From Escherichia phage vB_EcoM_JB75: 64,000 nt of DNA. Positions 8,991-14,133 of the stretch are shown in pieces. Location of the stretch: the sequence record MH355584.1, one strand, 5' to 3'. Position 1 is the first letter of the stretch, and the number at the start of each line of letters is the position of its first letter. The notes beneath the pieces are model-generated. The model was not told the origin of the DNA, ran no database searches, and saw only the letters and a program-made list of their open reading frames with translations. Position numbers and translations under genes: made by a program.

Positions 8991-9647
8991 TTATTTAGCC
9001 CTTCCTAATATTCTGGCCGCCTGAGCACATATTGATTCAAGGCGGTCATTACTTATATGATCATTTCTATACCAGTACATGGTTATCGTTCCAGCATAGA
9101 TATTATCCAAATTAAAATATGGACAACTGTACATGTAGTTTATTTCGGGAGTAGGCTTTTTAGTTGGTAAAAAAGCAAATTTTGAGTCGGAATAATAATG
9201 ACGTCCATTTAAATGAACTGTATATTCATCCATAGTTTTATCAACAGGATATCCTCCAAGTGATTTTTCAGTTATTGTTGAAGGTAATCTTCCTTCATAT
9301 GCTATAATATCAACAAAATAGTTTAAGTTTTTAGGGCGGAAAGAATACACCGCACTAAAGTCTGCCTCAGATGATATATGAACTATCTGGAGTTGTTCCA
9401 GGGCGACAGATTCAAAGCGTGCATTTCTTTCCTTTTCAATAATTTCACTATATGTTTCATACTTTGATTGCTTATAGTACTCAAAGAAACTATCTCCCCT
9501 ATACCAAACAATCGCCATCATAAATAAAAGAATTACGACAGCTACTCGGGAAGCAAGAACCTTCCCGGTAGCGTTATCTTTGAACAAGCGATCTAGAACA
9601 CCAAACAGAATATCAGAGGGCGAAAATGATATTCTAGGTGCTGCCAT
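8991..9647 (-). CDS. t: holin T (218 aa)
   Basis: 218 aa as in the T4 holin; one N-terminal TM helix (VAVVILLFMMAIVWY) and a large periplasmic domain; follows gene 38 on the same strand. Confidence 0.88.
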   Translation of the reverse strand: MAAPRISFSPSDILFGVLDRLFKDNATGKVLASRVAVVILLFMMAIVWYRGDSFFEYYKQSKYETYSEIIEKERNARFESVALEQLQIVHISSEADFSAVYSFRPKNLNYFVDIIAYEGRLPSTITEKSLGGYPVDKTMDEYTVHLNGRHYYSDSKFAFLPTKKPTPEINYMYSCPYFNLDNIYAGTITMYWYRNDHISNDRLESICAQAARILGRAK

Positions 9648-9677
9648 AGACCCTCCTTTTAAGGGTATTTATTCACA

Positions 9678-10460
9678 TTATACTCTTGGACCATATATTG
9701 CTCCAACATTTTGCCACGTTGGAGCAGACCCTATGACAGCATAACCAGCAGCGCCGCCATTATATTCAGATCCTTGACCGCGAATATTGCATCTACCTCC
9801 CGCGGAACCTACTTCACCACCGTTTCCACCATTATAGATACCATTCACGGATCCTGAGCCAGGTGCAGAAATAGTACCAGCAGTTGCGCCTGATTGCATA
9901 TCAATAGATCCGCCAGGTGCACCAAACGGACGCCCACCACCACCGCCAAAGGTTAATCTCATTTGTGAAAAAGGAGAATAATATCCGCCGCCACCGCCAC
10001 CGCCACCGCCAGCAATAGCTCCACCATTATTAATTCTTAGTCTCCCACCAATATCGTTTTGAATACAATGACCTCCAGCTGAGCCAGGACTATTGCTACC
10101 ACCATTACCGCCACGTCCATACATCGTTACGCCATGTATATTTAACTGAACATATTCATTTGGTGTATCTCCGTACATGAAGAATAAAGGAACATCTTTA
10201 GAATATGATACTAAATCACCTGTAATATTAAACACTATAGGTGCACTACCTGCCTCAAAACATCTATCTCGGAACCACTGACCATTAAAATTGTGGTTTG
10301 CTGTTACGGTATGAATAATCTCTTTTGAGCGTCCGGCGAATTGGCTCATCCAGCAAGGAACACCCAATCTTAATTGACCAGCCGCTTGACTCATCCATCG
10401 TTGTCCTGTTTCATTTACGGATGAACTACCAATCCAACCAGGAACACCAACTACTGCCAT
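9678..10460 (-). CDS. 38: tail-fibre tip adhesin gp38, T2-type (260 aa)
   Basis: Downstream of gene 37; conserved N-terminus [13 protein letters not shown] followed by glycine-rich blocks ([18 protein letters not shown]) typical of T2-like gp38; much longer than the 183 aa T4-type gp38. Confidence 0.85.
9986..10011 (-). repeat. GC-rich hexamer-like repeat encoding the poly-Gly tract of gp38
   Basis: ccgccgccaccgccaccgccaccgcc on the + strand encodes nine consecutive Gly in gp38. Confidence 0.8.
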
Positions 10461-10474
10461 AATTTATCTCCAAA

Positions 10475-10490
10475 GGGGGCGTTGCCCCTT
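10475..10490 (-). terminator. hairpin between genes 37 and 38
   Basis: GGGGCGTTGCCCC hairpin in the 34 nt gap between 37 and 38. Confidence 0.45.
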
Positions 10491-10494
10491 GTTG

Positions 10495-13443
10495 TTAGAA
10501 TTTAAAATATTTACTAATTTTGCGAGTAATTTTAGTAAAGAAAGGAGTTTTCAATTCTTTAATTTCTTCGCTCATTTCTTGGATAGCCTTAATTAAAAGA
10601 GCATTTACAGCGGAGTTAGAAATTGTCAGAACATCAGATCCATCAACTTCAACTTTAGATACAGCTTCCGGTAATTCCTTTTCAAGGTCCTGAGCAATAA
10701 TACCAACTTCACGTTTAATAACACTACGGTCTTTAATAGACTTAACTTTATCGTAAATATAAACTTTCAGTCGACATACTTTTTCAAGTGCTCCGTTTTC
10801 TAGCTCTTTTTTATTAATCTTAAGACGACCATCGGAACGAATATACACATCGTTAAAGTTACCATTACCAGGAGAATAGAAAGTACCGTCGTAATGAAAT
10901 TCAAATACCGCGTTAGGGTGTCCAGCCGCTGGCGATGCCTCTGCAGATCCAACACGAATAATTGCTTGCCCCCAATTGTTAGGGACACGACGAATACCAA
11001 GATCGACGGCAGTTACAAACCCTTGATTGGTGATTACACTTTTTCCTTTAATAATTGGATAATAACAATCCTGTGAAACATAACCATGATCGACGAATAA
11101 TGGAGCTTCTACTCGCCATTGGTTGCCCCAATCACCCGGTTGTCTAGCAATCCATCCAGAACCGTTAATGTGTACACGATCGCGGTTAACGTTAACCATT
11201 GCGATATTTTGTGGATTTAGCGAAATCTCACCATTGTTTGTGATATGTACTGCCGCCTGAGTAGCATAGCTATAAAATGCTAGCGAATTATCAGCACCAC
11301 CCTTGCCAATATACCAGTTACCAGCCCCGTCTATGTCACCGCGAATATGCAAAGAATTACTAGCAGTTGTTGATAATACGATAGAATCATTAGGTGCATT
11401 GATTGTTAACCGACCTGTCATCGTATCACCGCCTTTACCTAGGCGAGTATTCAAGGCAGCATCTAAATTGGTTGCATCGTTGTATTTCTTCCAGATTGAA
11501 CCAGCAATGTTACCATCAGTGTTCAAGAATGCTGCGCCAGCATAAACTCGGCTTTGTGACATGAATCGGCCAGACGGCAAGAAACGCCATATAGCTAATT
11601 CAGTGGCTGTAGTTCCAGTAGCGGATAAATCACCCTGAGCAACGATACGATATTCTGAACTAGCAATATCCATACCAGAAGCCATAGTAATATTTGTTAC
11701 AGTGTTTTTCTGTTTAACAATTGGCGCAAACTGGTTTTTATTTGAATCGTCAATGGCCTGATATAATGGTGCAATGGTAGTATTCTGATTCGCGTAAGTA
11801 TTAGAACCAGAACCGCTAGCAGGGGCTTGAATATATGCTCCTGGAGCAAGTGAAATTTTCTGATTAGCACCAAGATTAACAGCAGCAGTGATATTCAACA
11901 ATCCCCTAAAGTTTTGTTGAGCAGTCCAAGTATGTGATCCATCTTCAAGAACAACACGGCGAACTGTGCAAGTTCTATTTCCAGAATTACCGAACACACG
12001 AACGACAAAATAACGATAGTTTGTCTGGGATACAGTTCCACGCCAAACCTGAACAGTACGTCCTGTGCTGGTGTGCTCGCTAGGACCAACAGAAAACATA
12101 ATTAAGTTTCCGTCAATCGTGCCCCAATTCATATTAGCTGGCATGTTCTTTATTTTGTTCAAAGGAACGCTAAACATACTACCAGGAACAAAATCAAATG
12201 TTTGCCAATCTAGCTCCGCTAATTGAGTTTTAATACCACCCATACCTAAAGTAATTGGCAGAGAGTAAGATGTATATACTTCGTTCCATGCACCCCACAC
12301 ACCACCAGTATATGCACGCTCAAAAATACGATCGCGAGTAGTTGCACCCGTTCCGGCAGTAGTAAATTTTTGGAAAATAGCACCGCCAGAAGCACGTTGT
12401 TTAACTTCCAGCAAACCAACAATAACAGTCGGCAAACCTTCACCTGTAGGACAGTTAATAACGGCATCAGTGCCTAAAATATTATATAACCCAGGGGTTT
12501 TAAAATCATTCAGATCTCCGTCATAGAAAGTCGCTGGTGTGACATTACCGACTTGTTGCCACGGTCCCCATTTAGGCGCGGAAGCATCCCACGCGGCAGC
12601 AAGACAACGAGTATATACAACACCAAATCTGGTTGTATATCTTTGTGTACGAGAATAGTTTCCACCTTCATATACTTCCAAAAGACCTTGAGCTGACGAC
12701 CCCTCTTCTGGGAAATTTCTGTCAAAGGTAGCAATGGAATTTGAACTATTTCGCCACAAACCAAAGTGTTCAGCGCCTCCTAGATCATTAAGATCAATTG
12801 TTGTTGACAGTGGACGAGTACCGGATTGAATATTTCGCCACACACTCCACGGACCATTTACTCCGTTCCATGTAGCAGTCAAGGAACGAATATAAACATT
12901 TCCGTATCTAGTTGTATATCTCTGAGTACCAGCAAATTGACCGGCCACAAATACTTCTAGCACACCTACAGCATTTTCTTCTGGAAATTTATTTGCTGGT
13001 TGAGCGTTGGTTGAAGTTGCTTTCGACCAAACTCCAAGATATTCTTCAACAGGCCCATACGTATCTAAATTAGCATCAACAGGTAATTCGCCATTATTTT
13101 TTATAAACGTTGTGCTATTGACATTTATGTCAGATGGAGTTAGCGTGATATCTTTTGACCCATCAAAGGATATACCATTAATTTTTCGTGCTGTTTTTAA
13201 TTTCGTTGCAGTTGCAGCGTTACCTGTTAAATTTCCAATTATATTTCCATTAACAGTTAAAGAACCATCAATTGTTCCTCCATATTTTAAACCTAATTCT
13301 ATAACACTGCCTGAGTCATCTTTTGTGAAAATTGTTTTATCTTTTAAGTTTATAGCCAATTCACCTTCGGCTAATACTGAAGCAGCAGGACGTTGACCTG
13401 CAGTTTTGCTTCTTTTAAATTGTATTTGTTTTAAAGTAGCCAT
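10495..13443 (-). CDS. 37: long tail fibre distal subunit gp37 (982 aa)
   Basis: Large ORF between 36 and 38; N-terminus [35 protein letters not shown] is the conserved 34/37 fibre N-terminal motif. Confidence 0.9.
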
Positions 13444-13451
13444 AAGTCCTC

Positions 13452-14102
13452 TTAATAATAGCCGAAATCTTGAACAGAATCCTTAATTACGATTTGGTCA
13501 AATCGTGGAACGTGTGAAGGTTGAGATGCAGGATTCTGTGAAAAAAGGTTTGGCGCAGTTAAATTTCCTGTCATAGTGTCTCCAGAGCGTAATACCCTAG
13601 AGTTTGCATTTGCTGTAACAGTATTTATTGCTCCATCAACATAATCTTTGCGAGTAACATCAGATGCTGCGGAAGGAGTAGATGTAACAGTTACAGATGG
13701 AGCCGTTACAGCTTTGGTAAATGTTGTCAAACCTTCTGGCGTAATAGTAATTTGTCCAGTAGTGATTTCACTACCTGCTGGTCTAAAACTAATACCGCCA
13801 GAAGAGCCACCAACTACAAGAGTATTACCAGTGCCGCCACCAGAACGAATTCGGATGGGGGTTTCATTATTACTTAATTGAAGATAACTATTTACCCCGT
13901 AATTAATAGTAATTGGACCGGTGTAAGTACCACCATTAGCTTTAGAAACGAAATCGTTATCAGCTGCCTGCGGTTTATTATATTCTGAATATATTTTAAA
14001 TGATTTGTAGAGTACATCGTCACCGGCTGAATTCAATGGAAAATTTCCTTGATGCCAAATGACAGATCCACCTACAGTTGAACCTACTTTTAAATCAGCC
14101 AT
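13452..14102 (-). CDS. 36: long tail fibre distal connector gp36 (216 aa)
   Basis: Synteny (35-36-37), length close to T4 gp36 (221 aa), late promoter upstream. Confidence 0.82.
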
Positions 14103-14125: not shown

Positions 14126-14133
14126 TATTTATA
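14126..14133 (-). promoter_or_regulatory. late promoter for gene 36
   Basis: TATAAATA on the minus strand about 25 nt upstream of the gene 36 start. Confidence 0.6.

Follow-up and report, generated by a model that had tools for sequence, protein, structure and literature searches.

The DNA analysed here (hereafter the window) is a stretch of 64,000 nucleotides from Escherichia phage vB_EcoM_JB75 (record MH355584.1), and the gene in question is gene 37, which encodes the precursor of the distal subunit of the long tail fibre (gp37) and was recognized from the open reading frame (ORF) list, from Pfam and from its match to Escherichia phage Paracelsus. Two Pfam families match gp37, gp37_trimer at residues 693–744 and Peptidase_S74 at residues 870–928. 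An earlier note, made from the letters alone, had picked out the interval 10495–10860, which corresponds to gp37 residues 862–982 plus the TAA stop codon, as a C-terminal module resembling a cleavable intramolecular chaperone (IMC). We conclude that gp37 residues 870–982 form a C-terminal IMC domain of the Peptidase S74 (endosialidase-chaperone) family, and we put the probability of this reading at roughly 0.9. The evidence in hand is membership of the family by profile, a conserved catalytic pair, a consistent predicted fold, placement at the C-terminus and the presence of a gp38 partner. By analogy with better-characterized relatives, gp37 is probably cleaved autocatalytically at R869–S870 and would need the domain for folding. 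The end of the flagged interval is indeed the end of the ORF but its start is not that of the domain, which begins with S870 (window position 10836), eight residues further in. The features of gene 37 are as follows.

10495..13443, minus strand: gene 37, precursor of the distal subunit of the long tail fibre, 982 aa with stop codon TAA (10495–10497).
10837..13443, minus strand: predicted mature gp37, residues 1–869 (from the conserved Ser position and the S16 and T5 cut sites; PMC7917993, PMC4690869).
10834..10839, minus strand: predicted scissile bond R869/S870, with S870 as the nucleophile (from Ser conservation, the alignment with S16 and T2, and the prediction in PMC7917993).
10819..10821, minus strand: K875, the Lys at Ser +5, predicted general base of the Ser/Lys pair (from conservation and the T5 pb1 spacing).
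10498..10836, minus strand: IMC domain, residues 870–982, 113 aa with a mass of about 12.9 kDa; release predicted (from PF13884, 6f45_A and fold matches).
10660..10836, minus strand: Pfam Peptidase_S74 core, residues 870–928 (PF13884).
10549..10617, minus strand: terminal amphipathic helix, residues 943–965, predicted trimeric coiled coil of the IMC (from the AlphaFold2 (AF2) model, the heptad pattern and the T5 pb1 equivalent).
10498..10548, minus strand: subtype-specific basic amphipathic tail, residues 966–982, 17 aa, after the last IMC helix (not in T2 or S16).

The end of gp37 had been described as charged and coiled-coil-like, in contrast to a Gly/Asn/Thr-rich shaft, and the first part of this description is borne out: the peptide strings quoted are present, and K/R/D/E make up 36.8% and G/N/T/S 18.4% of residues 869–982 as against 16.0% and 35.1% of residues 1–868. 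When all 114-residue windows of gp37 are compared, the highest charged fraction is found in the one starting at residue 865 (0.368; mean 0.171, standard deviation 0.049) and the lowest G/N/T/S fraction in the one starting at residue 863. The term coiled-coil-like fits only the terminal helix (about residues 943–965), where hydrophobic residues occupy five of the seven a/d heptad positions (71%) in the best register, and does not fit the preceding 70 or so residues, which are predicted to form short helices and β-hairpins. Solved members of the Peptidase S74 family likewise have mixed short helices and β-hairpins before the terminal helix, and in T5 pb1 the equivalent helix builds a triple coiled coil (PMC4690869).

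Membership of the family is given by PF13884 (Peptidase_S74, ‘chaperone of endosialidase’), which matches residues 870–928 over model positions 1–57 of 58 with 43.1 bits (E = 5.3e-11), the gathering cut-off being 22 bits; the C-terminus taken alone scores 46.9 bits. The match begins within the junction motif DVYIR/SDGRLK (a slash or caret marks the cut here and below), which carries S870 and K875; in the alignment its counterparts are the second Ser in S16 DLNVS^SDRRIKK and Ser1243 of T2. In T5 pb1 the catalytic pair is Ser1264/Lys1269, with the same +5 spacing, and the chain is cut directly ahead of the Ser (PMC4690869). A word-indexed homologue search found 16 proteins, mostly partial, so that for diversity it was necessary to search 1.84 billion cluster representatives exhaustively with the domain; this gave 2937 matches at E ≤ 1e-3. 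The 164 homologues aligned comprise the best 150 of these 2937 together with the matches from the word-indexed search, and the match ends no more than 20 residues from the C-terminus in 153 of them (proteins of 79–2517 aa), so that the S74 domain, judged from its sequence, is a portable C-terminal module. Conservation, calculated over 158–165 homologues (158 for the Ser/Lys pair), most of them 37–74% identical to the query, is 99% for S870, 100% for D871, 90% for R873, 96% for L874, 100% for K875 and G914, 98–99% for A917 and Q918, and 97% for P925.

This conservation bears on one alternative, namely that the C-terminal fragment is removed by a host or phage protease acting in trans and that the similarity to S74 reflects a folding scaffold only. 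The earlier note had stated that T2-type fibres are reported to lose a C-terminal fragment, and published work bears this out (Drexler, Riede and Henning, 1986, as cited in PMC3157838); T2 gp37 shares both the domain and the YIR/SD junction. The citations of the 1986 work consulted here establish processing and not its mechanism, which leaves room for a trans-acting enzyme. Conservation of the Ser and the Lys at 99–100% down to about 37% identity is, however, difficult to account for if they have no catalytic role, replacement of the Ser by Ala (S1264A) stops auto-proteolysis when T5 pb1 is made in E. coli (PMC4690869), and autocleavage is described for S16 gp37 (PMC7917993). We regard cleavage in trans as very improbable.

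Structural comparison points to the same family. With the domain as a single sequence, a search of PDB sequences found S16 gp37 (6f45_A, E = 9e-5) in an alignment that begins at S16 SSDRRIKK; with a 12-sequence profile the same entry was matched at E = 9e-7 and the ICA domain of MyRF (7dc3) was matched weakly over a GxIAQ-x-LPEAV motif, and 8jov was also among the matches from these sequence-based searches. Neither the single sequence nor the 12-sequence profile reached the K1F, GA-1 and T5 structures, which were reached by fold only. The AF2 monomer model of the gp37 C-terminus has the order of elements H-H-E-E-H-E-E-long H, with pLDDT of 77–90 across the core and the long helix at model residues 102–122 (gp37 residues 943–963). 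When this model was compared with the PDB by Foldseek the top 11 matches were all IMC/ICA domains (7dc3, 3gud, 3gw6, 4uw8), with unrelated folds ranking only below them; the best was MyRF ICA 7dc3 (E = 1e-4, TM about 0.57), which ranked above 3gud, 3gw6 and 4uw8 from phages, and E-values for the K1F, GA-1 and T5 structures were 0.02–0.7 with the monomer model. The model is consistent, at moderate confidence, with a mixed α/β fold with hairpins followed by a coiled-coil helix, as in the S74 family. The homology to a peptidase S74 or IMC domain for which the earlier note recommended looking was therefore found, in the PF13884 score above the cut-off, in the catalytic pair and in the fold matches.

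The partner of the processed fibre tip is encoded next to gene 37, where the neighbouring genes are as follows.

13452..14102, minus strand: ORF of 216 aa upstream of gene 37, equivalent to Gp36 by the Paracelsus annotation.
9678..10460, minus strand: gene 38, T2-type polyglycine adhesin, 260 aa, downstream of gene 37 (Pfam GP38 and Gp38_N).
8991..9647, minus strand: T holin, downstream of gene 38 (ORF list, Pfam and Paracelsus annotation).

The block of genes 37 and 38 is 97.1% identical in DNA sequence to Paracelsus (Tequatrovirus), in which the matching genes are annotated as Gp35, Gp36, Gp37, Gp38 adhesin and holin; this identity and annotation identify the window as that of a T-even phage with a fibre tip of the T2 type and not of the T4 type. 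Plus-strand ORFs around the 3′ end of gene 37 are short and were taken as frame noise. The gp38 protein matches PF21721 (Gp38_N) at residues 1–42 (70 bits) and PF05268 (GP38) at residues 47–260 (242 bits), and is 52% identical to T2 gp38 over residues 1–147. It has Trp at positions 9, 22 and 37, in the N-terminal attachment domain, and long poly-Gly runs such as GGGGGGGGG in the receptor-binding part, a pattern that matches the Trp ‘prongs’ and polyglycine motifs of S16-type gp38 (PMC7917993).

It might be supposed that the module is kept by the virion, where it would make a charged coiled-coil knob at the fibre tip or close to it, and that gp38 has another binding site. The catalytic pair is intact in JB75 gp37, however, and the YIR/SD junction is common to T2. 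In S16, gp38 docks on the surface laid bare by removal of the IMC (PMC7917993), and in T2 and T6 gp37 is cut before it is capped by gp38 (PMC3157838). Retention of the module is to our minds scarcely credible.

The preferred reading, a released IMC, suggests the following course of events. The terminal helices of three nascent gp37 chains would form a coiled coil and so bring the chains into register, and the β-hairpin arms of the IMC would help to nucleate, from the C-terminus, the folding of the trimeric tip of the fibre. In a correctly folded trimer, S870, activated by K875, would then attack the R869–S870 bond and the 113-residue fragment (about 12.9 kDa) would dissociate, leaving a new C-terminus (...DVYIR869) as a flat hydrophobic tip on which the N-terminal domain of gp38 could dock. 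Several points weigh against this reading. The monomer model is of moderate confidence (mean pLDDT 69; TM 0.4–0.58 to the PDB matches) and contains neither the trimeric coiled coil nor the arms, and identity to the only processed T-even-type relatives for which there are experimental data is modest, at 46% for T2 in the C-terminal part that was aligned and at 31% for S16. Work on S16 is also said to have found that soluble assembly of T2-type fibres continues to depend on gp57A and gp38, in which case the IMC may not suffice alone. Finally, in T5 Arg1250 (from the neighbouring subunit) and Asp1239 form an oxyanion hole or ‘folding sensor’ (PMC4690869); the tip of gp37 has diverged too far for the upstream Arg/Asp residues of T5 and K1F to be placed in it by sequence, D865 and R869 being candidates.

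A further explanation accepts cleavage but gives the domain another main role, that of a removable cap masking the hydrophobic tip where gp38 docks, with folding carried out chiefly by gp57A and/or gp38. In T2-like phages gp38 acts first as a chaperone and then stays attached (PMC7917993), and the JB75 IMC is short (113 aa compared with 133–134 in T5 pb1), both of which would suit a cap. The domain is, on the other hand, described as a folding and trimerization chaperone in K1F, GA-1 and T5 (PMC4690869), and the AF2 model keeps both the hairpin elements and the coiled-coil helix at the end. We consider it unlikely that capping is the main role; the two roles are not mutually exclusive, and capping is compatible with the IMC reading preferred here.

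The position of the predicted cut also coincides with a mosaic boundary, at gp37 residues 857–869 approximately (10837–10875, minus strand): homologues share the junction and the IMC and are unrelated immediately upstream. At a coverage of at least 80%, the 3′ 426 nt of gene 37 are found in 176 phage records as against 75 for the whole block of genes 37 and 38, and an unusually tight recombination cut at the same place is remarked on in PMC7917993. The conserved junction that marks a T2-type tip in front of the IMC is kept across the homologues (T2 has NVYIR/SD). That junction and IMC are kept while the upstream sequence is unrelated supports the logic of an IMC-plus-gp38 cassette. As an inference the proposal of a cleavable chaperone was correct, and it concerns a feature already described: the family of the domain, the exact cut site and the fact that T2-type gp37 is processed are all in print. 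The value of the result lies in correct annotation: it fixes the predicted mature C-terminus of gp37 at R869, the surface for gp38 docking, and it marks the boundary of a portable IMC-plus-gp38 cassette, which is relevant to the engineering of T2-type host range.

The basic amphipathic tail that follows the last helix is of the form Pro-Phe-Phe...basic, and its residues 968–982 have a net charge of +5 and a hydrophobic moment of 0.71, a value reached by 0.7% of 2000 shuffles. Tails of the type Pro-aromatic-aromatic-basic are found in a few distant IMC homologues (37–47% identical), as KRPWWKKLLRL, KKPWWKKILGL and TPWYKKIYSKLFN; the endings PWWKKLLRL and PWYKKIYSKLFN illustrate the type. Such a tail might conceivably give the freed 12.9-kDa fragment a second job, for instance in binding to membrane or nucleic acid, or might time its release or degradation, although we think either suggestion a long shot.

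As regards transcription, no T4 late-promoter box TATAAATA was found between genes 36 and 38, and the nearest exact copy lies at 14126–14133 on the minus strand, just upstream of the start of gene 36 (14102), an arrangement consistent with genes 36, 37 and 38 being read from one late transcript. The 11 boxes of this sequence in the whole window are not above chance (8.5 expected). No terminator-like sites were found on the minus strand in 9500–13600. Between the stop codon of gene 37 and the GGAG/ATG of gene 38 there is, in the intergenic stretch 10445–10510, a GGGGC-N-GCCCC hairpin (about 10474–10490, minus strand), which was dropped as a candidate signal, its folding being no more stable than that of shuffled sequences (z = 0.31). 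The interval 10495–10860 is overlapped neither by a late promoter or terminator nor by any significant RNA hairpin. The record of phage fPS-65 annotates a ‘terminator’ feature under its match to the 3′ end of gene 37.

Among known systems the ICA domain of the eukaryotic myelin regulatory factor MyRF (7DC3) is the best structural match, with a weak profile match as well, but MyRF is a membrane-bound transcription factor in which the domain is internal and cleavage frees a transcription factor and not a fibre. K1F endosialidase (3GW6), GA-1 gp12 (3GUD) and T5 pb1 (4UW8) belong to the same Pfam family as the JB75 domain, have the same Ser and Lys(+5), have a similar predicted fold and carry the domain at the very C-terminal end of a fibre or spike that is trimeric. 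Apart from the shorter IMC of JB75, mentioned above with reference to T5 pb1, the difference lies in the client, which in K1F, GA-1 and T5 is the receptor-binding or enzymatic domain itself and in JB75 is a T-even fibre tip later capped by a separate adhesin. T4 has gene 37 at the same genomic position and for the same fibre, but T4 gp37, used as a negative control, gave no PF13884 match; it is not processed in the T2 manner and relies on the separate chaperones gp38 and gp57A. The C-terminus of T4 gp37 itself serves as adhesin, and gp38 of T4 is an unrelated protein that acts as a chaperone in assembly (PMC3157838).

The relatives with the T2 type of tip are closer. In gp37 of Salmonella phage S16 (6F45 construct; Dunne et al., 2018) the last 113 residues, the same length as in JB75, are described as an autocleaved IMC, cut at the site given above (PMC7917993); the S-D-x-R-x-K motif and the docking of gp38 on the exposed tip are also alike, whereas identity is only about 31% and the cut is preceded by DLNVS in S16 and by DVYIR in JB75. 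T2 gp37 is longer (1341 aa compared with 982) and PF13884 starts in it exactly at Ser1243, within NVYIR/SDIRLK; T2 also has a gp38 adhesin gene downstream of gene 37, but its IMC of 99 aa stops right after the coiled-coil helix and the JB75 IMC of 113 aa has the additional 17-aa basic tail, some of this extra length being made up for by short gaps inside the alignment of the two. Closest of all are the Yersinia-phage-type relatives, in which the junction DVYIR/SDGRLKI is identical to that of JB75 and the gene order g36-g37-g38-t is also alike, and cleavage at DVYIR^SDGRLKI was predicted in 2021 for the Yersinia phages fPS-2 and fPS-65 as well as fPS-90 (PMC7917993). The IMC sequence of JB75 is 94.7% identical to that of fPS-65, 97.3% to that of M1 and 100% to that of PYps5T, so that the module is without substantive difference from these near-identical relatives, while the gp37 shaft and the gp38 loops vary, as expected for host-range mosaics.

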